This document shows, piece after piece, positions 627 through 12,928 of a stretch of DNA of 12,928 nucleotides. The stretch comes from an uncultured bacterium. GTDB taxonomy: Bacteria; Pseudomonadota; Gammaproteobacteria; Burkholderiales; Burkholderiaceae_C. The position numbers were made by a program, and so were the translations under genes. Within the stretch, counting starts at the first letter, position 1. Every line of letters begins with the position of its first letter. The notes beneath the pieces were generated by a model, which saw only the letters and a program-made list of their open reading frames with translations, searched no databases and was not told the origin of the DNA. The stretch covers positions 1-12,928 of the forward strand of contig CAIKUF010000338.1 in assembly GCA_903830565.1 (NCBI GenBank). Reading direction: 5' to 3'.

Positions 627-850
627 GCGCGCCGCGGTGGTCGCGCCCTGCCCTTGGCAGGCGTGCTGCGGACGGCCTTCGGCGCTCCGTCGAAGACGGG
701 CGGGGATCGCCCCGGTTCACGCTCGGGCACGCTCAGCTTCACATCGCCCAGGCCGACGAACCGGGCCCGGATTCGAGAGGCCAAGTCCAGCGCGGCTGCA
801 GGCGCCTCGCGCAGCGCGGCGCGCAGGATCTGCCGCGCCTCTTCTTCCAT
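623..850 (-). CDS. vapB: VapB/FitA-type (ribbon-helix-helix family) antitoxin, apparently N-terminally truncated (75 aa)
   Basis: MEEEARQILRAALREAPAAALDLASRIRARF... matches the helix-2 and toxin-binding tail of FitA/VapB RHH antitoxins (canonical '...HGRSMEEEARDILR...'). No in-frame start exists upstream of ATG 850 before the iorB stop at 885. The expected N-terminal beta-strand plus helix-1 ('ITIRNL...RLRVRAA') is absent or shifted into another frame. No clear SD. Confidence 0.55.
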   Translation of the reverse strand: MEEEARQILRAALREAPAAALDLASRIRARFVGLGDVKLSVPEREPGRSPPVFDGAPKAVRSTPAKGRARPPRRA

Positions 851-884
851 CGAACGGGTGCGGCTGCGCGGCCAAGGCCGGCGC

Positions 885-1466
885 TCAACCCGCCAGCTTG
901 CGCCCGGAGTCGAATGCGCGGCCGTTGGCGTCGGCGAGCGCGGCGCTCTTGCCGAAGCGGCGCAGTACTTCGGCGCGCAACACATCGGCGGCGAAAGGCA
1001 GGCTGCCGGAGGCGGCGCCGAGCATGACGCTGTTGGCCAGGCGCACGTCGCCGAGTTCGGCCGCGACGGCGCGCGCATCGAGTTCGACCACGTCGACGCC
1101 GGCCGCGCGCATCTCCGCCGCGGGCGCCTTCGGGTAGTCGAAGTGCCCGCTGGAAACGATGGGCGGCACGGCGCGCCACGAATCGACGAACGCGCGACCC
1201 TTCGGCGCGAGGTAGTGGCTCCAGCGCAGGCCCTCGGCCGATTCGAAGGCGAGCAGCAGCGTCGCCTGCCCGACGGCGATCTCCGTCGCCTCGATGCGCT
1301 GGGCGATGCGCACGTGCGAGCAGACGACGCCGCCGCGCTGCGACATGCCGGCGACCTCGGTCTTGGTCGCTTCCAAGCCCGCCGCCAGCGCCGCGCGGGC
1401 GAGGGTCTCGGCGGCCGTCATCACGCCCTGGCCACCGATGCCGACGACGAGAATGTCGGTCTTCAT
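885..1466 (-). CDS. iorB: Indolepyruvate / 2-oxoacid:ferredoxin oxidoreductase subunit beta
   Basis: MKTDILVVGIGGQGVMTAAETLARAAL... (Rossmann-like GxGGQG of the Ior beta / PFOR gamma family). ATG at 1466..1464 overlaps the iorA stop (ATGA). The longer ORF from 1505 would overlap iorA by 43 bp. Confidence 0.85.
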   Translation of the reverse strand: MKTDILVVGIGGQGVMTAAETLARAALAAGLEATKTEVAGMSQRGGVVCSHVRIAQRIEATEIAVGQATLLLAFESAEGLRWSHYLAPKGRAFVDSWRAVPPIVSSGHFDYPKAPAAEMRAAGVDVVELDARAVAAELGDVRLANSVMLGAASGSLPFAADVLRAEVLRRFGKSAALADANGRAFDSGRKLAG

Positions 1467-3307
1467 GCAGCGACGATCGCGCCGCGCGAGCAGACCTTCG
1501 CGCACAGTTGGCAGCCCGTGCAGGCCGCGGCGTCGATGGTCGTCCAGGCGAGGTCCACAACCTTGCCGCCGGCGCGCGTTTGCTGCTCACGGCGCGTGAC
1601 CGTGACGGCAGGGCAGCCGACTTCGAGGCAGCGCGCGCAGCCGTTGCAATCCTCATCGACGACCTTGAGCGGCGCGCGACGCTCGAACTCGGGCGTGAAC
1701 ACGCACGGGCCGGTGGCGATGATCACCGACGGCTCGCGCACCTTCATCTCTTCGCGCAGCACCTTGAGGAAGGTCGGCAGCTCGTAGGGGTCCGCCATGC
1801 GGATGCGCTCGGGCTTGACGCCCAGGGCCTGGACCAGGCGCGCGAAGTCGATCCGCGGCGCGATCGTGCCATCCATTCGGTGGCCGTTGCCTGGGTTGTT
1901 CTGGCCGCCCGTCATCGCGGTCGATCGGTTGTCGAGCAGCAGCACCGTCACATTGCCGCCTTGGTAGGTGATGTTGGCCAGCGCCGGCATTCCGGAGTGC
2001 AGGAAGGTCGAGTCGCCGATCACCGCGAGCACCGCCTTCGCATTCGCGTCGCCTTCCTGCGCCTTGGCCATGCCGTGGGCGACGCCGAGCGACGCGCCCA
2101 TCGCGATGCACATGTCCATCGCGTCCCACGGCGAGCCGCAGCCCAGCGTGTAGCAGCCGATGTCGCCGCAGATGATGGTTTCCTTCAACTGCCCGAGCCA
2201 GAAGTAGACGCCGGTGTAGGAGCACCCAGCGCACAGCGTCGGCGGGCGCGGGAACACGCTCGCAGCGCGCTGCGAGGCGCGGTTGTGCGAGGCATCGTCG
2301 GCGAGGCGCGCAACCGCCTGCTCCAGCACCGTGACGGTGATCTCGCCCCCGCGCGGCAAGACGCCCTTGCCGTGGACTGTGAGGCCCGCGGCGCGCAATT
2401 CGTTCTCGACGATGGGGTCGACTTCCTCGACAACGAGCACCTTGTCCACGCTCGCGGCGAGTTGCTTCGCGAGGCCGAGCGGCAACGGGTGCGACAGGCC
2501 GAGCTTGACGATGGGCGCCTGCGGGCAGGCCTCGCGCACGACGTGGTACGCGGGCCCGGAAACGATAAAGCCGATGCGGCGGTCGGCGCCGGGCTCAAGC
2601 CGATTCCATGGCGAAGACTCGGCTTCGAGTGCCAGCGCGGCGTCGCGCTCTGCGCGCAGCTCCAGCCGCTTGGCGACGTGGTTGGGCGTCGTGATCCAGC
2701 GCGGTGCGTCCTTCACGTAGCCATGCTGCCCGGCGTCGGGCGCTTGCTGCGCCGAGGTTTGCGTCATGCGCTTGACATGCGAGACGCGCGTCGTCAGGCG
2801 CACAAGCACCGGCACCTCGAAACGCTCCGAGAGCGCGAACGCGTCGCGGGTCATCGCATAGGCCTCGTTCGCATCGGAAGGCTCGAGCACCGGCAGATGA
2901 ACGAAGCGGCCCCAGAAGCGCGAGTCCTGCTCGTTCTGCGACGAAGAGAAACCGACGTCGTCCGACACCGCGATCACGAGCCCCGCCTTGGCGCCGACCT
3001 GCCCGAGCGTCATCAGCGAATCGGAGGCAACGTTCATCCCCACGTGCTTCATCGCCGTGATCGCGCGCCGCCCTGTCATCGACGCGCCGAGCGCCACTTC
3101 GAGCGCGACCTTCTCGTTCGTCGACCACTCGGCATAGATGCCGGGAAACGTGGCGAGTGTCTCGACGATCTCGGTCGACGGCGTACCGGGGTAGGCGGCT
3201 GCGATCTCGACGCCCGCGTCGAGCGCGCCGCGGGCGACGGCCTCGTTGCCGGAGAGAAACGCGCGCGCGGTCGCGGTCGCGATGGCAGGCTGGAGCACAG
3301 CACTCAT
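1463..3307 (-). CDS. iorA: Indolepyruvate:ferredoxin oxidoreductase subunit alpha (TPP-dependent, two C-terminal 4Fe-4S motifs)
   Basis: 614 aa with N-terminus MSAVLQPAI...LSGNEAVARGALDAGVEIAAAYPGTPSTEIVE typical of IorA. TPP-binding GDSTFLHSG. C-terminal CNGCARCLEVGCP / CTGCQLCAKVC ferredoxin motifs. GGAG 8 nt upstream of the ATG. Confidence 0.9.
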   Translation of the reverse strand: MSAVLQPAIATATARAFLSGNEAVARGALDAGVEIAAAYPGTPSTEIVETLATFPGIYAEWSTNEKVALEVALGASMTGRRAITAMKHVGMNVASDSLMTLGQVGAKAGLVIAVSDDVGFSSSQNEQDSRFWGRFVHLPVLEPSDANEAYAMTRDAFALSERFEVPVLVRLTTRVSHVKRMTQTSAQQAPDAGQHGYVKDAPRWITTPNHVAKRLELRAERDAALALEAESSPWNRLEPGADRRIGFIVSGPAYHVVREACPQAPIVKLGLSHPLPLGLAKQLAASVDKVLVVEEVDPIVENELRAAGLTVHGKGVLPRGGEITVTVLEQAVARLADDASHNRASQRAASVFPRPPTLCAGCSYTGVYFWLGQLKETIICGDIGCYTLGCGSPWDAMDMCIAMGASLGVAHGMAKAQEGDANAKAVLAVIGDSTFLHSGMPALANITYQGGNVTVLLLDNRSTAMTGGQNNPGNGHRMDGTIAPRIDFARLVQALGVKPERIRMADPYELPTFLKVLREEMKVREPSVIIATGPCVFTPEFERRAPLKVVDEDCNGCARCLEVGCPAVTVTRREQQTRAGGKVVDLAWTTIDAAACTGCQLCAKVCSRGAIVAA

Positions 3308-3446: not shown

Positions 3447-5531
3447 TCAGTTCGCGGGAGAGCCCGGGTTCGCTATCGGCGCAGCGGCGACGGAATCCGC
3501 CGCGCCGCGCGCATAGTGGTCCTTCACCAGCCCGGCCAGCAGCACATCGACGAGCGTGCCGCCGCTGCCTGCCGTCCCGCCGCCGTTGACGAGCACGTCG
3601 GGCACCAGGCGCACGCCGGCGCCGGCCAGGGCCTGCGCGACCTGCACGACGGCGTAGTTGCCGGACTCCATTGAGTCGATCTTCTGCTTGATCACTGCCG
3701 CCTCAGCCTGGCCCACCGCCAGCGTCTTGCCGGCCTCGGCCTGGCCGGTGACGCGGATCACTTCGGCGTCGGCGTTGGCGTTGATCTTCTTCGCCTGCGC
3801 GGCGCCGTCGGCGGTCTTCACCGCGGCCTGGGCCGAAAACTCGGCGATCGCGACCTTGCGCTCGGCGTCCACCACCTGCGCCTGCGTCTTGGCCAGCGCG
3901 GTCGCCTGTTCGAGCTTTTGCTTGACGCCCTGCGCTTCCATCTGCGTGCTGAAGGTGACCTTCTCTTGCTCGGCGAGCTTGCGGTCGGTCAGCGTCTTCA
4001 TCAGGTCGGCCGGCGGGTTGATGTCGCCGATCAGCGTTTCCACGGCGCCGACGTCGTAGTCCTTGAGCGCACGGCCGATCGCCTCCTTGGCCTCGGCCTG
4101 ACGCTCGGTGCGCTTCTTCAGGAAGTCGATCACGTCCGAGTTCTGCGCCGCGTTGCGAAAGTAGTTGCCTATCGTCGGCTCGAGCACCTGCGTGACCAGC
4201 GCTTCCATGCTGCCGAAGCGGGCGATGACCTTGGGCGCGTCGTTGCGCGGGATGTGGATGATCTGGCTCACGTCGAGGTTGAAGGTGAAGCCGTCGGCCG
4301 AGCGCACGGTGATCGTCGACAGGTTGGCGTCGAGCTTGTGCGCCTCGGTCTTGCCGGTGGCCCAGTTCAGCACCACGTTGGCGGTCGGCACGACGCGCAC
4401 CTTGTGGGTGTAGGTGTTGATGGCGTACTTGCCCGGGTCCAGCACATCGACCCAGACGCCTTTCTCGCCGCGACGAACCATGTTCGCGTGCTTGAACTCG
4501 GCGCCGGTCACGTCGTCACCCGGCTTGCCGACGAAGGCCACCACGACGCCCACCGAAGCGATGGGCACCTCGGTCATGTCGATGATCTCGACCGTCGCGA
4601 ACATCGGGTTGACGAAGTAGCGCCCGGCCAGCAGCACCTGCTCCTGCAGGCCCTTGGTGCCGCCGCGGTCGACGAAGGCCTGCGGGTCCTGGAACAGGTT
4701 GTGCCCCGGCACTTCGGCGCCAGCGATCTCGCCGGTCTTGAGCGACGCGCCTTCGCGCGTGGTGACGATGCCGACCTTGTTGTCCGGCACGTCGAGCACG
4801 TTCGCGAGCGTGACCTTGAACAGGCGCGGGTTGATGCGATAGCGGCCCTGCGGAACGATGCTCATCTGCGGCCCGCGTTCGCCGCCATGGGCCATGAAGG
4901 CCTGCGCGGCCTGGAACGAATCGCACGCGACCTGCTTGCCGATGATGCGGCCACCCGAAAGCGGCGCGCCGTCGCGCGCTTCCACGATGCCGATCTTGCC
5001 CGGGTCGACCTCGGTCATCGGCTCCATTTGCACCGTGAAGAGCAAGGTGTTGATGCGCCACGCACCCGGCGGGACGACAGACATCTGCACGCCGCGCTGG
5101 CCGCCGCTGGCGAGGAAGGCGCGCGCGTCCTGGAAGTTGTCGCAATCGACATGCCGCGCGATCACGCGCCCATCGGGCAGCGGCTCGCCGTCGCAGGCCT
5201 CGATGACCGCGATCTGGCCATCGGGAACGAAGGTGAACTTCACCAACTCGACGGTGTACTGCCAGGGCCAGAGAAAGAAATGCAGGCCGGGCGCCAGCGT
5301 GTCGGCCTGCAGACCGGCCTCGCCGAGCATGGCGACGATGCGGCCCGGGGGCAGCTCGCGGTGCGAGCCGAAGAGCACGAACTTCTTGGTGACGGTGCCG
5401 ATGGAATCGTCCGGCACGATGACGATGCCGAACAGGCGGAAGGTCCACTTGTACAGCAGCACGAAGGCGACGACGGCGACGAGCACGAACAGCGCCGTCG
5501 AGTGATCGAAGAGAAAGTCAGTGACGCTCAT
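3447..5531 (-). CDS. Flotillin-family / SPFH (band 7) domain membrane protein with tandem N-terminal repeats
   Basis: 694 aa with an N-terminal TM helix (ALFVLVAVVAFVLLY). Three ~73-aa repeats (PDGQIAVIEACDG... / DPGKIGIVEARDG... / PDNKVGIVTTREG...) followed by an SPFH core, then an Ala/Gln/Glu/Lys-rich coiled-coil 'flotillin' tail and a Gly-rich C-terminus. AAGG 8 nt upstream of the start. Confidence 0.85.
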   Translation of the reverse strand: MSVTDFLFDHSTALFVLVAVVAFVLLYKWTFRLFGIVIVPDDSIGTVTKKFVLFGSHRELPPGRIVAMLGEAGLQADTLAPGLHFFLWPWQYTVELVKFTFVPDGQIAVIEACDGEPLPDGRVIARHVDCDNFQDARAFLASGGQRGVQMSVVPPGAWRINTLLFTVQMEPMTEVDPGKIGIVEARDGAPLSGGRIIGKQVACDSFQAAQAFMAHGGERGPQMSIVPQGRYRINPRLFKVTLANVLDVPDNKVGIVTTREGASLKTGEIAGAEVPGHNLFQDPQAFVDRGGTKGLQEQVLLAGRYFVNPMFATVEIIDMTEVPIASVGVVVAFVGKPGDDVTGAEFKHANMVRRGEKGVWVDVLDPGKYAINTYTHKVRVVPTANVVLNWATGKTEAHKLDANLSTITVRSADGFTFNLDVSQIIHIPRNDAPKVIARFGSMEALVTQVLEPTIGNYFRNAAQNSDVIDFLKKRTERQAEAKEAIGRALKDYDVGAVETLIGDINPPADLMKTLTDRKLAEQEKVTFSTQMEAQGVKQKLEQATALAKTQAQVVDAERKVAIAEFSAQAAVKTADGAAQAKKINANADAEVIRVTGQAEAGKTLAVGQAEAAVIKQKIDSMESGNYAVVQVAQALAGAGVRLVPDVLVNGGGTAGSGGTLVDVLLAGLVKDHYARGAADSVAAAPIANPGSPAN
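4568..5228 (-). repeat. Three tandem ~220-bp direct repeats inside the flotillin CDS (coordinates approximate)
   Basis: Protein-level triplication. The same repeated peptide strings are visible in the antisense frame of ORF 4858..5505 (MKACAAWNESHATCLPMMRPPESGAPSRASTMPILPGS / RKARASWKLSQSTCRAITRPSGSGSPSQASMTAIWPSG). Confidence 0.7.
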
Positions 5532-5827: not shown

Positions 5828-7075
5828 ATGCTCGAAGTCGCCGCTGTCTGCCTCGTCATCACCGCACTGCTGTCCTACCTCAACCATCGCTACATCGGCC
5901 TGCCCTCGGCGATCGGGATGATGGCCGCCGCGCTGACGCTTTCGCTGGCCCTGGTCTGGCTGGACACCGCCGGCATCAAGCCCGGCCTGCGCCAGTACGA
6001 GGAAACACTGCTGCGCTCGATCGACTTCTCGAACGCGCTGATGCAGGGCATGTTGTCGTTCCTGCTCTTTGCCGGCGCGCTGCACGTCGACCTCAAGCAG
6101 CTCAAGATCTATCGCTGGCCGGTGGCGGCACTGGCCGTGCTGGGCACCACGCTGTCGACGCTCGCCGTCGGCTACGGGATGTGGTTCGCGCTGCCGCTGC
6201 TGGGCCTGCATCTGCCCTTGATCTACTGCCTGCTGTTCGGAGCGCTGATCTCGCCGACCGACCCGATCGCCGTGATGGGCATCCTCAAGTCGGCCCACGC
6301 ACCGAAGGAGCTCGAGCTCGTGATCGCCGGCGAATCGCTCTTCAACGACGGCGTCGGCGTGGTGATCTTCTCGCTGCTACTGGGCATGCTGGCCAGCGGC
6401 GTCGCGCCGACGACGAATCAGGCGCTGCAACTGCTGGTCCATGAAGCCGGCGGCGGCGTGCTGTTCGGCCTGCTGCTCGGCTACGTCACCTTTCGTCTGT
6501 TGAGGAGCGTCGACAACTACCAGGTCGAGGTGATGCTGACGCTGGCGGCCGTGACAGGCGGCTACATGCTCGCGACCAAGCTGCACGTGTCGGGGCCGCT
6601 CGCGATGGTCGTCGTCGGTCTGATCGTCGGCAACCAGGGCCGCGCCCTGGCGATGTCGGACACCACGCGCAAGTATCTCGACATGTTCTGGGAGTTGCTC
6701 GACCAGATCCTCAATGCCGTGCTCTTCGTGCTGATGGGCATGGAGGTTCTGCTGGTCACCTTCACGCTCAGCGAACTCGTGGCCACGGTTCTCGCGGTTG
6801 GCGTGACCTTGCTCGCGCGCGCGGCCATCGTCGGCCTGCCGGCGGCGGTGCTGCCGCGGGCATTCAACCTGCCGCGCGGATCGTGGAAGGTGCTGACCTG
6901 GGGCGGGCTGCGCGGAGGCATCTCGGTCGCGCTGGCGCTCTCGCTGCCCGCCGGTGCGGAGCGCGACACCGTGGTCGCGCTGACCTACGGTGTCGTCGTC
7001 TTCTCGATCTTCGCGCAGGGGCTGTCGATCGGCTACGTCACGCGCAAGTCGGTTGGCGGGCCTGCGCAAACGTAG
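5828..7075 (+). CDS. nhaP: NhaP-type (CPA1 family) Na+(K+)/H+ antiporter
   Basis: 415-aa polytopic protein. Family hallmarks LISPTDPIAVMGILK, ESLFNDGVGVVIFS and TWGGLRGGISVALALSLP. AGGGA 5 nt upstream of the ATG. Confidence 0.85.
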   Translation: MLEVAAVCLVITALLSYLNHRYIGLPSAIGMMAAALTLSLALVWLDTAGIKPGLRQYEETLLRSIDFSNALMQGMLSFLLFAGALHVDLKQLKIYRWPVAALAVLGTTLSTLAVGYGMWFALPLLGLHLPLIYCLLFGALISPTDPIAVMGILKSAHAPKELELVIAGESLFNDGVGVVIFSLLLGMLASGVAPTTNQALQLLVHEAGGGVLFGLLLGYVTFRLLRSVDNYQVEVMLTLAAVTGGYMLATKLHVSGPLAMVVVGLIVGNQGRALAMSDTTRKYLDMFWELLDQILNAVLFVLMGMEVLLVTFTLSELVATVLAVGVTLLARAAIVGLPAAVLPRAFNLPRGSWKVLTWGGLRGGISVALALSLPAGAERDTVVALTYGVVVFSIFAQGLSIGYVTRKSVGGPAQT

Positions 7076-7186
7076 GGCGCCGAATTAGTTGCTCTGGCGC
7101 GTAAGCGCCGACAAGGACTTAGAACTTATCCGCAAATCGCAAACTATCTGCCCGAGCCGCATTGATCGCGGCGTTGGCGTTGGGAT

Positions 7187-7738
7187 ATGCCAGCAAAGCG
7201 AGCTGATTCCTGGGTGGTGACGGATGAGTTCTGGGCGCGGGTCCAACCGCTGGTCCCAGAGGTCAAGCGCGCGACGCGCACGCAGTACGTTCGCAAGCCC
7301 CGGGCGGGTCGACCGCCCAAACCGGCCAGGCAGGTGTTTGAGGCGGCGGTGTACGTGTTGCGCACGGGATGCCAGTGCAAGGCACTGCCCAACGAGCGGT
7401 TCGGCAGTGCGAGCACCGTGCACAAGCGGTTTTTGCAATGGGAGGAGGCCGGCTTCTTTGAGGCGCTGTGGAATGCCGGCCCAGCTGGCCGAGTACGACC
7501 AGATGCAGGGCATTGCCTGGCGCTGGCAGAGCACGGACGGGGCGATGTTCAAGGCATCGATGGCACTCCAAGCCGTCGGGCCCAACCCGACGGATCGGGG
7601 GAAAAATGGGGGCAAGCGGCACCTGCTGGTGGACGGGCTCGTTCCCGGTGCTTCCCGCTTGGTCTCAAGTCGTTGATCGAGCATTCCGAGCGCATTGATG
7701 CGGTTCCAGGTTCTCAAGCGGTCCTGCGATTTGTGTAG
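7187..7738 (+). pseudogene. IS5-family (IS427/IS1031-group-like) transposase remnant, frameshifted and truncated
   Basis: Frame 2 reads VTDEFWARVQPLVP...RAGRPPKPARQVFEAAVYVLRTGCQCKALPNERFGSASTVHKRFLQWEEAGFFEALW (OrfA-like). It continues only after a +1 shift into frame 0, as LAEYDQMQGIAWRWQSTDGAMFKA...VGPNPTDRGKNGGKRHLLVDGLVPG. That matches the start of the DDE domain ('IDGS..RA..GPSPVDRG.KGSKHHL..D..GIPLA') and stops at 7676. The rest of the DDE domain is missing. A possible C-terminal tail lies in frame 2 (LKSLIEHSERID...). Confidence 0.75.
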
Positions 7739-7856
7739 CTTTCGCGGCCGGATTGCACAGGAACTACACGCACTCCAGTGATCTCGGCTAGCGCAGAGGA
7801 TCTGTGGGAATCGACGCTTGACCATCGTCTGCGCCCACCATCTTGGCAATGCAGCC

Positions 7857-10800
7857 CTATGCCGCCGCCCGCTGCCTGATCTCGTCTAGCACCTGCACCA
7901 TCCGATCAACCTTGGCGGTCGGAAACAGACCTTCCGGTCCCTGCGGGCTGATGTCGAGGAACGGCGACTCGTACAGCCGCGCGGCCTCCATCACGCCGTT
8001 GGTCGTCAGCTCGGAAACGATCAATTCGATGAACTCGATCTGGTCCGGCGTGGCCTGGGTGCCCGCGATCACGTCACTGAAAGCCTGCGCAACTGCCTCG
8101 CGTTCCATGCCGACCAAAGATCGGATGAAGATGCCCAGCCCGAACTTGTCCTCTGCCGCCTTCTGGATCAACTCCGGCGTGCCGCCGGCGTCGACCAGCA
8201 TGCGCTGCAGTTCCACCACGTCGGCGGGCGTCAGTGCCTGGCCGCGCCGCAGCCGCTGCAAGGCCAGATGGCCCAGGTGGGCCTTGAGGAACTGCCGCGC
8301 CTTGTCCTTGAACCTGGCCATGTCCAGGCCGTTAGCGACTTCGGGCAGGTCGAAGGTGGTCTCGGTGCCCAGCTCGTCGATGAAGTCGGTGTAGACCACC
8401 TTCTTCTTCGACTTCTCGATCAGCTTGACCAGCAGGCGCAGCCGCTTGCGAGCGTTCTCCAACATGCCCAGCGTCACATCGTTCCACCATTCGTCACCTG
8501 CGATAGCCTGGATCAGCACCATTTCGGCCTGGATGGCGGGCACGGCTTCCTGCTCCTCCAGTGCGCTGGCAATGGCGCGAATCTGATCCCGCAGCGCGCC
8601 AAACCCAGGCGCGGCTTGCAGGATGGCCAGTTGGGTGCGCAGCACAAGCAGGTCGAAGCGTTTGGCCTCCTCGTCAGCGTCCACCAGCTCGGTGGGCAGG
8701 CCGGCGATGTGGCTGGCCAGTTCGGCGTGGTCGTCGCCAGTCAACGCATGCCAGGCTTCAGGCCGGGTGAACTTTTCGACCGCGCGCCGCTGCGGCCGCA
8801 CCACGAAGTTCTCGACATTCATGGCCGCCACCAGCTGGTGCAGGTGGCCGGCCGTGCTGTCACGCAACTGCTGGTGGTTGGGCTGCGGCCCGTACTTGGC
8901 AGGCGACTCGTTGATCTGCTGCCCATCGACGACCTTACGGTCCAGCTCATCAATCAGGCTCAACCGCGCCTTGAACAAGCGCGTGCCCAAGGATTCGCTG
9001 GAACTGCCGTCGGTGGTGTCGGGGTTCTGGCTGAAGAATTCCAGGTTCTGGCAATAGTCGAACAGGTAGAAGAATTTCTTGTGTTCGCCCGGAGCGAACA
9101 AATCGGGGCACAGCCGCGTGCCGCGCCCCACCATCTGCCAGAACTTCGTGCGCGAGCGGACGATCTTGAAGAACACCAGGTTCACCACCTCGGGCACGTC
9201 GATGCCGGTGTCCAGCATGTCCACCGAGATGGCGATGTGCGGTGCCTTGTCCTTGGCCGAGAAGGCGTCGATCAGGCTCTGCGCGTAGACGGTCTTGTAG
9301 GTGACGACGCGCGCGAACTCGCCCTTGTAGTGTGGGTAGTTGACATTGAAACGCTCGGCGATGAACTCGGCGTGGTCGTTGTTCTTGGCGAACACGATGG
9401 TCTTGCCCAGCCTGTCGCCGCCGGCCACCTTCTGGCCCTTGGTCATCAGGTGCGCCAGCGCCTTGTCGACCGTGTCGGTGTTGAACAGCCACTGGTTCAG
9501 GGCCGCGGCCTCCACCTCGTCGGGCGGCGGGCTGCCGTCCTCACTCCACTCCAGGGCGTCCCACTGTTCCTTCTCGTCTTCGCTGAGTTGGGCGTACTTG
9601 ATGCCGTCGCGCTGAAACTTCAGCGGCACCGACACCGCCAGCGGCGGCACCAGATGGCCATCGGCCACCGCCTGGTCCAGCGGGTAGGCGTCGGTGGGCA
9701 CGCCGTCTTCGAGGTCGAACAGGCCATAGGTGTTGTGGTCGATCTCGTCCTTGGGCGTGGCCGTCAGGCCCACCAGCAGGCAGTCGAAGTACTCGAAGAT
9801 GGCGCGGTACTTCTGGTAGACCGAGCGGTGCGCCTCGTCGATCACGATCAGGTCGAAATGGCCGACGCCGAAGCGGCGCTGCCCGTCCATGGCGTCGTCG
9901 ATCAAGCCCATCATCGTCGGGTAGGTGGAGACGAACACCCGGCCCTCGGTGTGCTTGTCGGTCACCAGGTTGACCGGCGATGAGTCCGGCAGGTGGCGCT
10001 TGAAGGCATTCACCGCCTGGTTCACCAATGCCACCCGGTCGGCCAGGAACAGCACTCGCTTGGCCCAGTTGGCGCGCATCAGCACATCGGCCAGGGCGAT
10101 CACCGTGCGTGTCTTGCCGGCGCCGGTGGCCATCACCGCCAACGCCTTGCGCAGGTGGTGCTTCTCGAATGTCTCGCCGATGCGGCGCACGGTGCGCACC
10201 TGGTAGTAGCGCTCGACGATGCCGGCGTCTATCGCCGCGCTGGCCAGCGGTTTGCGGCTGCTGCGGCGCTGGATCATCAGCGCCAGCTCGGCCTTCTTGT
10301 AGAACCCCTGCACTGCACGCGGCGGGTAGAGCGCATCGTCCCAGATCCAGTGCTCATAGCCGTTGGAGCAGAAGATCACCGGCCGCTGGCCGTACTGCGC
10401 CTCCAGGCAATCGGCATACAGCTTGGCTTGCTGCTGGCCCTCCTTGGCGCCCTTCTTCGTGCGCTTGGCTTCCACCAGCGCCAGCGGCTTGCCGTCGTCA
10501 CCCCACAGCACGTAATCGACGAAGCCCTTGCCTTGCTCGTTGGGCATGCCGGCGACTTCGATCTCGAAATTCTTCTTCGGGTCGAGTTGCCAGCCGGCCT
10601 CCTTCAGCAGCAGGTCGATAAAGTAGTCGCGGGTTGCCGCTTCGGAATAGTCGTGCGTGTCGGGCGTGGCGGCGTTGGCCCGCTTGGCTGCGGTCACCTC
10701 TTCGCGCAGCCGGGCCAGCTCGGCATCCAGCGCCGCCGTGGTGCCAAGCAGCGTGGAGAGCCTTTCATCGCGCTCGGCGAGCTGCGCCTCCAGCTTCTGC

Positions 10801-11273
10801 AACTGGTCCAGGGTCTGCGGTGGCAGGGCCGGTGCTGCGGCGGCAGGCCGGGTCAGCAGCGCCGGGTTGAAGTCCAGCCCGGGGTCGGGCCGGCCGCGCT
10901 GACCATAGGTGCGCGCCAGCCAGTAGCCGATGTGGAACAGCTCGCGCGTGGCCACCATGGCATCGGCCGGCAGCACCTTGCGGGCGCTGTGCACAGCCTG
11001 GTTGCCCAGTTCCTTGATCACCTTTGCCTTGGTGAACACCGCCTGGCCCACTACCTGGGCGAAGCTGGGCTCGTGGATCAGTGCGCTCAGGTTGTCCTGG
11101 TAGGGCAGGCGCAAGCCACGGTCATGCTTGTAGAGCCAGGCCACCGCCAGTTCCAGCGTGCGCCGGGCGTAGAAGCAGGCGACCCGGGCATCGGCATGCA
11201 CCATGTCTTCGGCCTTGGTTGCCGACTCGTGCAGCAGCGGCCACTCAGCCAGCAGGAAGCTGAAGTTGCTCAT
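7857..11273 (-). CDS. hsdR: Type I restriction enzyme R subunit (HsdR): N-terminal DUF4145-like domain, PD-(D/E)xK nuclease, SF2 DEAH helicase, EcoEI_R_C-like C-terminus
   Basis: 1138 aa from MSNFSFLLAEWPLLHESATKAE. HsdR_N nuclease motifs ATRDYFIDLLLKEAGWQL and FVDYVLWGDDGKPLALVEAKRTKK. Helicase motif I MATGAGKTRT, motif II LIVIDEAHRS, motif VI QMVGRGTRL. The longest ORF starts at 11318, but the family-typical N-terminus begins at ATG 11273. Confidence 0.85.
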   Translation of the reverse strand: MSNFSFLLAEWPLLHESATKAEDMVHADARVACFYARRTLELAVAWLYKHDRGLRLPYQDNLSALIHEPSFAQVVGQAVFTKAKVIKELGNQAVHSARKVLPADAMVATRELFHIGYWLARTYGQRGRPDPGLDFNPALLTRPAAAAPALPPQTLDQLQKLEAQLAERDERLSTLLGTTAALDAELARLREEVTAAKRANAATPDTHDYSEAATRDYFIDLLLKEAGWQLDPKKNFEIEVAGMPNEQGKGFVDYVLWGDDGKPLALVEAKRTKKGAKEGQQQAKLYADCLEAQYGQRPVIFCSNGYEHWIWDDALYPPRAVQGFYKKAELALMIQRRSSRKPLASAAIDAGIVERYYQVRTVRRIGETFEKHHLRKALAVMATGAGKTRTVIALADVLMRANWAKRVLFLADRVALVNQAVNAFKRHLPDSSPVNLVTDKHTEGRVFVSTYPTMMGLIDDAMDGQRRFGVGHFDLIVIDEAHRSVYQKYRAIFEYFDCLLVGLTATPKDEIDHNTYGLFDLEDGVPTDAYPLDQAVADGHLVPPLAVSVPLKFQRDGIKYAQLSEDEKEQWDALEWSEDGSPPPDEVEAAALNQWLFNTDTVDKALAHLMTKGQKVAGGDRLGKTIVFAKNNDHAEFIAERFNVNYPHYKGEFARVVTYKTVYAQSLIDAFSAKDKAPHIAISVDMLDTGIDVPEVVNLVFFKIVRSRTKFWQMVGRGTRLCPDLFAPGEHKKFFYLFDYCQNLEFFSQNPDTTDGSSSESLGTRLFKARLSLIDELDRKVVDGQQINESPAKYGPQPNHQQLRDSTAGHLHQLVAAMNVENFVVRPQRRAVEKFTRPEAWHALTGDDHAELASHIAGLPTELVDADEEAKRFDLLVLRTQLAILQAAPGFGALRDQIRAIASALEEQEAVPAIQAEMVLIQAIAGDEWWNDVTLGMLENARKRLRLLVKLIEKSKKKVVYTDFIDELGTETTFDLPEVANGLDMARFKDKARQFLKAHLGHLALQRLRRGQALTPADVVELQRMLVDAGGTPELIQKAAEDKFGLGIFIRSLVGMEREAVAQAFSDVIAGTQATPDQIEFIELIVSELTTNGVMEAARLYESPFLDISPQGPEGLFPTAKVDRMVQVLDEIRQRAAA

Positions 11274-11291
11274 GCCTGCCCGCCCCATGGA

Positions 11292-11415
11292 TTGCAATTG
11301 GCGGCGCCGCGGTTGCAAATGCCCCAGCGTGCCAACTCATTGAAAGGCAAGGCAAATTTCGGCTGCATTGCAACTTCAGCCAGCCTCGTTTGCAACTTGC
11401 TGGCCGGGGTTGCAA
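11292..11415. repeat. Array of five palindromic TTGCAA hexamers in the hsdR leader
   Basis: TTGCAA at 11292, 11313, 11368, 11390 and 11410 (start-to-start gaps 21, 55, 22, 20 bp). The first copy is the extended palindrome ATTGCAAT. Flanks resemble each other (gTTGCAACTT twice). Confidence 0.6.
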
Positions 11416-11443
11416 TCGGCCGGCGGCGGGCCGGGATGTTTGG

Positions 11444-12031
11444 TCATGGCTTGGCAGGGGTCGCCTGAACCTGGGCTTCCACGGCCGCAGCCAGCAGCGG
11501 CGCCACACCGCGCAACCCGTCCAGCGTGAGGCGGCCGGACAAGTACATGTCGTACCAGGACTTGCGCCAGCGGATCACCCGCTCACCGTCGCGCAGCTTC
11601 AATCGCTTCAGCGTGAATTCGGCCTTTGCGCGGTAGGCGGCGGGCACAGCATCCGTGACGCGCAACTGCAACGAAGGCAGGATGATCTCGAACCAACCGG
11701 CACCGACTTCAAAAGGGTCGAGCACCGCATCGTCCGCATCACGCTTGGATGAGTTCAAGGGCCCGGAAGCGAAGCGGTAGTTGCTCCACTCATAGGCCAG
11801 ATCGCGGTGGCGCTTGAAGCTGAGAAAGTGATCCACCGTGCCGCCGGTCGGATCGTGCATGGCAGCGTAGCCGCACAGGTTGTGGAAAGCCTCGGACAAC
11901 TGCGATGTGTAGGTCGCCCACAGTGCCGGGGGCCGTGCTGCCTCTGGGTTGTTTGCCAACCATGCGTCGCCCGGGACCTTGACTTTGGCATCGAAGCCGC
12001 GAGGCTTCTTTGCCCGGGCCATAGGGATCAT
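11444..12031 (-). CDS. HNH-like nuclease of the TIGR02646 / Septu PtuB type (putative)
   Basis: 195 aa. Motif CGYAAMHDPTGGTVDHFLSFKRHRDLAYEWSNYRFASGPLNSSKRD fits the TIGR02646 HNH core (D/E-H-F-x-P/S-x-S ... LAY-x-W-x-N-L-x-x-A-x-x-x-N-x-x-K). Its start overlaps the upstream ATPase stop as ATGA (12028-12031). Confidence 0.55.
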   Translation of the reverse strand: MIPMARAKKPRGFDAKVKVPGDAWLANNPEAARPPALWATYTSQLSEAFHNLCGYAAMHDPTGGTVDHFLSFKRHRDLAYEWSNYRFASGPLNSSKRDADDAVLDPFEVGAGWFEIILPSLQLRVTDAVPAAYRAKAEFTLKRLKLRDGERVIRWRKSWYDMYLSGRLTLDGLRGVAPLLAAAVEAQVQATPAKP

Positions 12032-12928
12032 GGGGCGCCCCCGACCCGGCCTACTCCTTTGATCATCTTGGTGTCGACCAACCAGCGTGGCCAGAACTCA
12101 TCGCCGACCGACAGCAGCTTGCGCAATTGGGCGTGAATGGCCGCCTGGGAGTCCAGCCCCGCGGGCAATGGCTTGTCGCCCCGCATGAAGGCTTCGGCTG
12201 CCTCGATGGCCCGTTCGGCTTCTACTGACCGCGCTTGTTCCAGCCCGAAAGTCTCTGACACCAGCCAGCTGCTGGCGTCGCCCTGGGTGGCCCAGCCGCC
12301 TTGGTCGATAGCCACTTGGCCGTTGCGCAGCGACAGGTGGATCAGGTCATCCTTGCCCGCATCGAAATAGGGCTCCAGCGACGCCGCCACCAGCGGCGAA
12401 TGGGTGGCCACCAGCATCTGCGGCGCACGGCCTGCCTTGCCGCGCAGAGTGTCGATGGCCTTCAGCACGCTGGGCAGTACGACGCGCTGCCAGCGCGGGT
12501 GCAGATGCGTCTCGGGCTCGTCGAACAGCACCACGAAGCGGTCTTCCGGCTTCTTGCCGAGCAGTTGAGCCGCGGCCCGGTGCTCGTGCCAGGCCCACAC
12601 CAGAAAGTAGGCCAGCGCCAGCACCCGCCGCACGCCGGCCGAGGCCAGCGACACCGGCACCGTCTGGTTGCCCACCAGCAGCGTGGGCCGGTCGCGGCCC
12701 TCGCCCAGGAATACCCGCTGCGGCTGCCCCACCCGTAGCGGCTCCGACGGCGGCGACAGCACACGCAGCACTTCTTCCAGCACCTGGAACTGCGGCTCGC
12801 GGCCTTCCAGCCAGTTGACCCAGTCCCGTTCCAGGCCCTCACACACACGCTGGCCCTTGATGTCCAGGCCGTCCCACACCTGCGGTGCCTGAAAGTGATA
12901 AGCCGCGGGCCGGCCGGGGTCGGTGCGC
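12028..12928 (-). CDS. ABC/SMC-like AAA ATPase (AAA_15/AAA_21 type, PtuA-like), 5'-truncated by the window end
   Basis: The reading frame stays open to the window edge (no stop upstream of the GTG at 12879). ABC-signature-like SLASAGVRRVLALAYFL, Walker B RFVVLFDEPETHLHP, H-loop QMLVATHSP, then a ~140-aa C-terminal extension. Translationally coupled to the HNH gene. Confidence 0.6.
   Translation of the reverse strand, partial: RTDPGRPAAYHFQAPQVWDGLDIKGQRVCEGLERDWVNWLEGREPQFQVLEEVLRVLSPPSEPLRVGQPQRVFLGEGRDRPTLLVGNQTVPVSLASAGVRRVLALAYFLVWAWHEHRAAAQLLGKKPEDRFVVLFDEPETHLHPRWQRVVLPSVLKAIDTLRGKAGRAPQMLVATHSPLVAASLEPYFDAGKDDLIHLSLRNGQVAIDQGGWATQGDASSWLVSETFGLEQARSVEAERAIEAAEAFMRGDKPLPAGLDSQAAIHAQLRKLLSVGDEFWPRWLVDTKMIKGVGRVGGAP

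Follow-up and report, generated by a model that had tools for sequence, protein, structure and literature searches.

A probable stand-alone Septu gene pair between hsdS and hsdR in a type I restriction-modification locus of an uncultured Burkholderiales-like bacterium

Gene Order at the ptuAB Locus

The window analyzed in this study is a 12,928-nucleotide stretch of DNA from an uncultured Burkholderiales-like bacterium (contig CAIKUF010000338.1 of assembly GCA_903830565.1), and within positions 7857-12928 it carries three consecutive minus-strand genes, namely a 5'-truncated ATP-binding cassette (ABC) ATPase gene, a gene of 195 codons, and hsdR of a type I restriction-modification (R-M) system. 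An earlier note, made from the letters of the window, had proposed that the first two form a Septu-like defense module of the PtuA plus PtuB kind. Searches with hidden Markov models (HMMs), which that note had suggested, support this proposal for both proteins: the ATPase fragment matched PADLOC profile PDLC00307 with an E-value of 3e-111 (profile positions 132-418 of 424), and the 195-residue protein matched PDLC00348 with an E-value of 3.5e-68 (positions 1-194 of 198). The stop codon of ptuA and the start codon of ptuB overlap, as had been observed, by ATGA at 12028-12031 of the minus strand, which reads TCAT on the plus strand, and this overlap constitutes translational coupling of the two genes. 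The same 4-nucleotide overlap of ptuA and ptuB is found in the homologous pair of plasmid NC_019739.1.

A look-up of the exact PtuB sequence returned two metagenome contigs (L001 and L002). L001 is 99.88% identical to the window across 11.5 kb and reaches 1.25 kb further, thereby supplying the 5' end of the ATPase gene that the note had correctly placed beyond the window; the full-length ptuA (positions 712-1980 of L001) encodes a protein of 422 residues with the Walker A motif GDNGLGKS. Positions 2-673 of L001 are occupied by hsdS, identified by a Methylase_S match (5e-13) and a typical HsdS C terminus, and this gene stops 38 nucleotides before ptuA. The resulting order from the window and L001 is hsdS-ptuA-ptuB-hsdR with all four genes co-oriented, and it places the pair in the very slot inside a type I locus that had been suggested, where PrrC or RloA/B-type genes are usually found. 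A type I R-M system is thus indicated by the HsdR domains in the window and by an HsdS in the same operon on L001. HsdM precedes hsdS in 12 related loci, including that of the closest genome (L003), with an N6_Mtase match of 2.4e-55 for the protein of L012. Because the gap to hsdS is only 38 nucleotides and holds no terminator, ptuAB are probably co-transcribed with hsdMS.

Motifs and Structures of PtuA and PtuB

About 123-130 N-terminal residues of PtuA, including Walker A, must lie off the window because coverage of the PDLC00307 profile begins at position 132. The remaining fragment also matched PDLC00270 (1.6e-78) and scored above the Pfam thresholds for AAA_15 and AAA_21, and the signature, Walker B, and H-loop motifs on which the note had recognized an ABC-type ATPase could all be read in the window (Table 1). 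Together with the Walker A motif seen only in L001, all four motifs are intact. In a by-eye alignment, the Val of the signature-like motif occupies the site of a Gln in retron PtuA (LSDGQR) and of a Leu in E. coli Septu PtuA (PMC12819146). The C-terminal domain reported to follow the H-loop is present, although it measures ~121 rather than ~140 residues and need not be called unexplained, as it corresponds to the extension known to dock PtuB; alignments to several other PtuA models and to NF041760 also continue for ~70 residues beyond the H-loop. By analogy with characterized complexes, this extension would be the docking site for PtuB. To obtain a structural view of PtuA, a full-length homologue of 91% identity was modeled in its place with AlphaFold2 and gave a mean predicted local distance difference test (pLDDT) score of 74.8 for the monomer. 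Its best Protein Data Bank (PDB) matches in Foldseek were E. coli Septu PtuA (8eea_B, 1.8e-14, as well as 8sux and 8ee4) and retron PtuA, all of them before Rad50; heads of SMC proteins were matched as well.

We also compared the ptuA alleles of the window and L001. Of the 14 nucleotide differences between the two contigs, 12 fall within 132 nucleotides (12678-12809) inside ptuA and cause four amino acid changes, and this patch lies within the insert that separates Walker A from the signature motif. It could reflect recombination between ptuA alleles or an assembly artifact of strain mixing.

Searches of Pfam and NCBIfam with PtuB gave nothing at E ≤0.01. A family profile built from 64 homologues (33-87% identical) did match solved structures: these were chains recorded as "TIGR02646 family protein | PtuB" (22bv_F, 2.3e-4), the PtuB of retron Ec78, E. 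coli Septu PtuB 8ee7_C (0.02), and Cas9 HNH domains, and every alignment ran through the core C-x-Y...(D/E)H...W-x-N. The earlier description of this core as being of the TIGR02646 kind holds as a statement of homology, since 43 of the 64 relatives match TIGR02646 (best 2e-8) and 36 match the PtuB family NF041761, but not as one of membership; PtuB is homologous to TIGR02646 at the family level without belonging to it by the curated definition. The structure comparison that had been called for was made with an AlphaFold2 model of PtuB (pLDDT 97.4; predicted template modeling score 0.90). The 11 best PDB matches of this model in Foldseek are all PtuB chains, with template modeling (TM) scores of 0.50-0.63, and Cas9 HNH domains come next. 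The PtuB chains include 9u9y_H (E = 2.5e-5, TM 0.63), 8eea_G of E. coli Septu (3.1e-4), and the PtuB proteins of retrons Ec78 and Ec83. The alignments to PtuB chains extend over 184-248 columns and therefore cover essentially the whole protein.

Conservation among the 64 diverse homologues confirms the HNH core that had been read from the sequence (C53...D67-H68...N84...N93-K96). At least 60 of the 64 keep each of C53, D67, H68, W82, N84, R86, N93, and K96, and for H68, N84, and N93 the number is 63 each. The claim that this is the only conserved block did not stand, as the C-terminal half contains LDP, GWFEI, LPSLQ, and RWRxxWY, which are invariant or close to it. H68 and N84 are candidate catalytic residues with a spacing of 16; H75 and N91, both essential in Septu EcB88, are spaced identically (PMC13096335). 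The helical C-terminal domain of PtuB has a described role in binding the PtuA extensions (PMC12819146), and the corresponding domain of the present protein may, on the strength of this likeness, bind the C-terminal extensions of its own PtuA.

Table 1. Coordinates of the ptuAB-hsdR features in the window
Feature	Position	Strand	Details and basis
ptuA, 3' part	12028..12928	-	C-terminal 299 codons + stop; PADLOC PDLC00307, Pfam
PtuA ABC signature-like motif LASAGVRR	12625..12648	-	Direct reading; invariant among homologues
PtuA Walker B/D-loop FVVLFDEPETHLHP	12496..12537	-	D259/E260 in full-length numbering; invariant, 27 homologues
PtuA H-loop VATHSP	12394..12411	-	H299 in full-length numbering; direct reading, homologues
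PtuA C-terminal extension, ~121 residues past H-loop	12031..12393	-	Covered by PADLOC PtuA models
ptuB, 195 codons + stop	11444..12031	-	PADLOC PDLC00348, AlphaFold2, Foldseek
PtuB HNH core LCGYAAM...TVDHF...YEWSNYRF...LNSSKR	11741..11878	-	Conservation, 64 homologues
PtuB C-terminal domain	11447..11722	-	Two beta strands and helices 131-143, 150-164, 170-190; AlphaFold2 secondary structure
ptuB-hsdR spacer, 170 nucleotides	11274..11443	-	Five TTGCAA palindromes; hexamer count
hsdR, 1138 residues from ATG 11273, N-terminal DUF4145	7857..11273	-	Pfam, motifs

Relatives of the Pair and the Surroundings of hsdR

To see in which contexts this PtuAB subfamily occurs, we scanned one genome per species and obtained 43 loci, whose neighboring genes were annotated by clustering and Pfam; genes in this DNA of 65-70% GC were called by a codon-position GC score. 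In every locus whose contig spans both genes, ptuA and ptuB are adjacent and the pair is intact. By our own count, which covers this one subfamily, 16 of the 43 loci (37%) lie in type I R-M operons. In 15 of these 16, ptuAB are upstream of an hsdR of the EcoEI_R_C type, with hsdM and hsdS before them wherever the contig allows, and in the remaining one (L006, Methyloversatilis) the pair is just downstream of a HindI-like hsdR. The gap between hsdS and ptuA is steady at 36-38 nucleotides in the six loci that were checked. The other 27 loci are without type I R-M, and HMMs of HsdM, HsdS, and HsdR detected no extra type I genes in them. The neighbors in Pseudomonas are Lnb_N/DUF7840, GreA/GreB-like, ABC-F, and GGDEF-EAL genes, in L020 and L021 the pair adjoins Wadjet JetABCD, a WYL regulator, and Fic, and a 63% identical pair annotated as "ATP-binding protein" and "hypothetical protein" is carried by a conjugative cyanobacterial plasmid (NC_019739.1). 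Outside the pair and the R-M genes, the neighbors vary from locus to locus, so that synteny is not conserved. Given that the pair is found alone or in other defense islands, ptuAB is therefore an autonomous mobile module.

In a neighbor-joining tree from PtuA plus PtuB, the copies embedded in R-M operons fall into one proteobacterial clade, where stand-alone copies are scattered among them, and the copies of Myxococcota and Thermoanaerobaculia branch outside that clade. Movement of the module has left a trace in L005, where PtuA is 94% identical and R-M is absent; here ~45 nucleotides of an hsdS 3' end and the 38-nucleotide spacer precede ptuA (L005 8690-8740), and at least that copy has therefore left an R-M operon. 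The closest isolate genome, Rubrivivax sp. A210 (L003), has the complete order hsdM-hsdS-ptuA-ptuB-hsdR within an island that reads rsmB, DUF4390, histidine kinase, response regulator, tRNA-Phe, hsdM, hsdS, ptuA, ptuB, hsdR, small open reading frame, hipBA. The tRNA-Phe(GAA) gene (L003 5621-5696) stands directly before hsdM and the hipBA toxin-antitoxin pair after hsdR, and the R-M-plus-Septu block of this genome looks like a tRNA-associated genomic island. A scan of 13 other loci for tRNA genes found none.

In several relatives, further cargo is present between ptuB and hsdR: a Fic/SoFic-like gene (L017 10680-11813), AbiEi (DUF6088) with AbiEii (L009 2041-3701 and L010 1337-3109), and a nucleotidyltransferase with a small partner (L026 10716-11742). 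The gap before hsdR behaves in these relatives as a multi-cargo defense hotspot. In L028 (11313-16203), hsdR is in two pieces (residues 2-665 and 663-1138) that are ~1.4 kb apart, and ptuAB are intact; the split is probably due to an insertion that disrupts restriction.

The HsdR of the window matches ResIII (1e-34), EcoEI_R_C (7.7e-24), HSDR_N, Helicase_C, and DUF4145 in Pfam, and its motifs are intact, both those of the PD-(D/E)xK-like nuclease (FVDYVL...LALVEAKR) and those of the helicase (MATGAGKT and VIDEAHR). The pair had been described as reading into hsdR across a gap of 125 bp. The two do share a strand, but the mechanically assigned hsdR start (TTG 11318) is probably wrong, judging from homologues that begin with MSNFSF or MASNFSF, equivalent to ATG 11273; another ATG is at 11288. 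With the start at ATG 11273, the gap is therefore 170 nucleotides, and the HsdR length of 1138 residues agrees with the gene calls on L001 and L002.

This spacer contains five copies of the palindrome TTGCAA in 124 nucleotides (11292-11415), starting at 11292, 11313, 11368, 11390, and 11410 with start-to-start spacings of 21, 55, 22, and 20 nucleotides. The whole window has 8 copies, 5 of them in the spacer, versus 2.3 expected, and no shuffle attains 8. L003 and L004 share the array, and a variant (GGATTGCAACC/GGTTGCAATCC) is found in the Xanthomonadales-type loci L034 and L038. Other 16-bp palindromes, TGACCCCATGAGGTCA and TGACCCTATGGGGTCA, ~40 nucleotides apart, precede hsdR in L011 (8890-9000) and L013 (10560-10650); with palindromes differing in this way, the hsdR promoter region seems to have diversified operators. 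The array looks like a putative operator array of an hsdR regulator, and the spacer is probably the promoter/operator region from which hsdR keeps its own regulated promoter. A scan of the coding strand of the spacer found no σ70-like promoter and no intrinsic terminator, and a σ54-like TGGCAC...TTGCA seen by eye was dropped for its wrong spacing. RNA structure in the spacer is unsupported, with a minimum free energy z-score of -1.4 and 20 of 200 shuffles folding equally well or better.

Homology to L003 ends at the hsdR stop codon. Beyond it, ~780 nucleotides (7076-7856) of lower GC (0.63) separate the convergent ends of hsdR and a Na+/H+ exchanger gene, and since the homology stops where it does, this interval is probably an island boundary or decayed DNA. 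Its open reading frames (254, 183, and 150 codons) have no coding GC pattern at third codon positions, no family match, and no homologue in related loci. The longest (7085-7849, minus strand) was considered as an operon member and is treated as noncoding, its GC by codon position being 0.61/0.57/0.69 versus 0.67/0.40/0.89 for hsdR. The exchanger is of the CPA1 type (5828-7075, plus strand). On the minus strand follow a gene for a 694-residue protein (3447-5531) with an SPFH/Band 7 domain at residues 357-543, internal repeats in its N-terminal region (tblastn self-matches of 31-35% identity), and no PADLOC match, and at 739-3307 genes for an indolepyruvate ferredoxin oxidoreductase alpha subunit (TIGR03336, 8.5e-183, just below the cut-off) and a POR-family beta subunit. 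The exchanger gene and the genes at 739-3307 look like housekeeping genes, and the defense block therefore ends at hsdR. A scan of the window for Rfam families and tRNA genes found none.

Interpretation of the Locus

With a PtuA match, an HNH protein carrying the His and Asn of PtuB, adjacent and co-oriented genes, and neither a reverse transcriptase nor a retron noncoding RNA, we consider it highly likely that ptuAB, located between hsdS and hsdR, belongs to the stand-alone (type I) Septu anti-phage systems. Like the characterized type I systems (8EE4/8EE7/8EEA/8SUX and EcB88), it consists of co-oriented overlapping genes for an ABC ATPase of ~420 residues and an HNH protein of ~200 residues, PtuA has the C-terminal extension and PtuB the helical C-terminal domain, and PtuA matches these systems best both in PADLOC and in structure. 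The His-Asn spacing is that of EcB88 and, in the by-eye alignment, the signature lacks Gln as in E. coli PtuA. The present pair is unlike them in its low sequence identity and in having lost the zinc-finger cysteines save C53.

A number of results count against this assignment. PtuB is only 13-17% identical to the solved PtuB chains, a measure of its distance from the characterized systems, and PtuA is 11-18% identical to the solved PtuA chains in structural alignments. None of the curated families is reached: in a relaxed scan, PtuB scored 15 bits (E = 0.019) against TIGR02646, for which the cut-off is 52.15, and 12.7 bits (E = 0.087) against NF041761, for which it is 150, and PtuA scored 36 bits against the retron Ec78 PtuA equivalog NF041760, for which it is 500. 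A single-sequence PDB search with PtuB found no solved relative, its sole match, an L-DOPA dioxygenase (E = 0.011), being spurious. The three other zinc-finger cysteines of classical HNH/TIGR02646 proteins are absent family-wide among the 64 homologues, and with three of the four zinc-site cysteines gone, the substrate and regulation of PtuB may therefore differ. Residues 340-422 of the PtuA homologue model are of low confidence (pLDDT <57), and because the monomer model is poor in this region, the fold of the extension and the PtuA-PtuB interface are both putative. L001 and L002 end inside hsdS, and no hsdM is seen on the window's own contig. Finally, the R-M association of 16 in 43 loci is high for merely opportunistic insertion.

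The solved complexes suggest how such a system might work. In these, a single PtuB is held through its helical C-terminal domain between the C-terminal extensions of a pair of PtuA subunits, forming a nine-helix bundle (PMC12819146, PMC12065111), and in the same reports, the PtuA of stand-alone Septu is described as a hexamer. Activation has been proposed to occur when phage proteins and a drop in ATP free PtuB (PMC12819146, PMC12065111). Septu EcB88 depends on Walker A, Walker B, and HNH residues, cuts tRNA-Tyr in its variable loop, and acts like abortive infection (PMC13096335). By extension from characterized Septu and retron PtuAB, the PtuA studied here would form ABC-ATPase dimers that join into a higher oligomer, and the C-terminal extensions of a dimer would grip a single PtuB by its helical C-terminal domain, keeping the HNH nuclease of this PtuB inactive as long as ATP is bound. 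PtuB would then be released or activated by a phage cue combined with a fall in ATP, and phage replication would be arrested in an abortive infection-like manner. As judged from the layout, the position of ptuAB would most likely result from the use of the hsdS-hsdR gap as a hotspot for defense cargo.

The earlier note had left open a retron context, in which the pair would be the effector of a type I-A retron (Septu type II) with a reverse transcriptase and msr/msd encoded just beyond the window edge. Type I-A retrons (Ec78/Eco7 and Ec83) do have a homologous ATPase-HNH pair, retron PtuB chains are top structural matches with 9u9y_H as the nearest solved structure, and weak matches of PtuA to NF041760 (3.6e-9) and PADLOC ATPase_I-A (2.6e-11) and of PtuB to HNH_I-A (0.0018) were obtained. 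However, the curated retron models are not satisfied, and with hsdS ending 38 nucleotides upstream of ptuA on L001, there is no retron in that space; the 10 kb upstream in L003, fully annotated, include no reverse transcriptase gene, the L003 island as a whole has none, and neither a reverse transcriptase nor an Rfam-matching noncoding RNA accompanies the pair in the window. The stand-alone PADLOC models also score >300 bits above the retron model, and PtuA has 422 residues versus ~550 in retron PtuA. Judging from this length difference of ~130 residues alone, the N-terminal extension and helical flap specific to retron PtuA (PMC12819146) are probably missing here. The retron reading thus fell away and we regard it as having next to no chance of being right. 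A different ATPase-nuclease system (PARIS AriAB, Gabija, or OLD/RloA-RloB) or a housekeeping ATPase of the SMC/RecF/RecN type is very improbable as well. Such an identity could draw on the generic AAA_15 and AAA_21 matches, on the Rad50 and SMC heads among the structural matches of PtuA, on a 3.5e-9 match to TIGR04435 (restriction system-associated AAA ATPase), and on the next PADLOC families, AriA (1e-12) and GajA (8e-11). The latter are far weaker, however, and trail the PtuA models by >300 bits, and the partner is an HNH protein with the PtuB fold rather than a Toprim or DUF4435 protein. The note had named a housekeeping family with conserved synteny as the outcome that would overturn it, but no RecF/RecN-type family fits and no conserved housekeeping synteny was seen.

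The location of the pair invites comparison with PrrC of EcoprrI and the Rlo genes, which likewise encode an ABC-ATPase-controlled nuclease inside, and co-oriented with, a type I R-M operon; PrrC is an anticodon nuclease, and a tRNA target has been published for some Septu systems as well. On this model, PtuAB would be a guard that is silenced by the type I complex and fires when Ocr, ArdA, or Stp-like proteins disable restriction. The slot and orientation shared with PrrC and with the embedded DarTG2 described below are consistent with such a role, as are the 16 R-M-embedded loci that fill a proteobacterial clade and the occurrence of the pair with two HsdR families, the EcoEI_R_C type and the HindI-like type of L006. 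PrrC, however, is a single polypeptide of another family that is kept latent by the R-M enzyme and, according to Payne et al. 2024 (10.1101/2024.01.29.577857), nearly always embedded. In contrast to this near confinement to type I R-M operons, 27 of the 43 PtuAB loci and the plasmid copy lie outside them; the subfamily is widespread without R-M, with R-M-free copies as close as L005 and others in Pseudomonas, Myxococcota, and the plasmid. Characterized Septu systems act alone (PMC13096335), and the sequences indicate no HsdR- or HsdM-binding element. Taken together, these data make the guard model unlikely.

A close published parallel in position is enteropathogenic E. coli (EPEC), in which DarTG2 lies between hsdS and hsdR, a site called a likely hotspot by its authors, and the island is controlled via arrays of the 6-bp palindrome TAGCTA that are bound by RptR (PMC12255303). 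The present locus is similar in having a second defense system in the exact hsdS-hsdR gap and an array of a 6-bp palindrome (here TTGCAA). It differs in its cargo, an ATPase-nuclease pair rather than a toxin-antitoxin pair, and in the RptR sites of EPEC, which are closely spaced 9-bp repeats before the first gene of the island and not before hsdR. An RptR-like gene was not found upstream of hsdM in L003, where the tRNA-Phe gene occupies the space. We think it doubtful that, in this proteobacterial lineage, the Septu pair is more than cargo and is functionally tied to the type I enzyme as a back-up firing once phage anti-restriction proteins have neutralized restriction, with the TTGCAA array as the operator of an RptR-like coordinating regulator; if true, this regulator would coordinate the restriction and Septu layers.

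The stand-alone Septu assignment also agrees with what is known of embedding. Under the term "guilt by embedding", the preprint of Payne et al. 2024 (10.1101/2024.01.29.577857) describes defense systems that lie inside RM type I, BREX, DISARM, and Hma; in 96.7% of cases, the embedded genes have the orientation of their host system. Septu is the classic cargo of Hma, and in the text consulted it is not singled out within RM type I. Septu and embedding in type I R-M have both been described already, and PADLOC has HMMs specific for this PtuA/PtuB subfamily, and the identification is therefore correct but ordinary. The subfamily is large, with 764 PtuB clusters at 90% identity and 983 at 50%, and constitutes an annotation gap: PtuB is unseen by Pfam and the pair falls under the NCBIfam cut-offs, and public records therefore say "hypothetical protein" (or "ATP-binding protein"). 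Work on Septu nucleases could profit from comparison with the zinc-less HNH variant, and the hsdS relic of L005 lets the movement of the module be followed. The locus thus adds a new example to the published hsdS-hsdR hotspot for defense cargo, a gap that in relatives contains Septu by itself or accompanied by Fic, AbiE, or nucleotidyltransferase modules.

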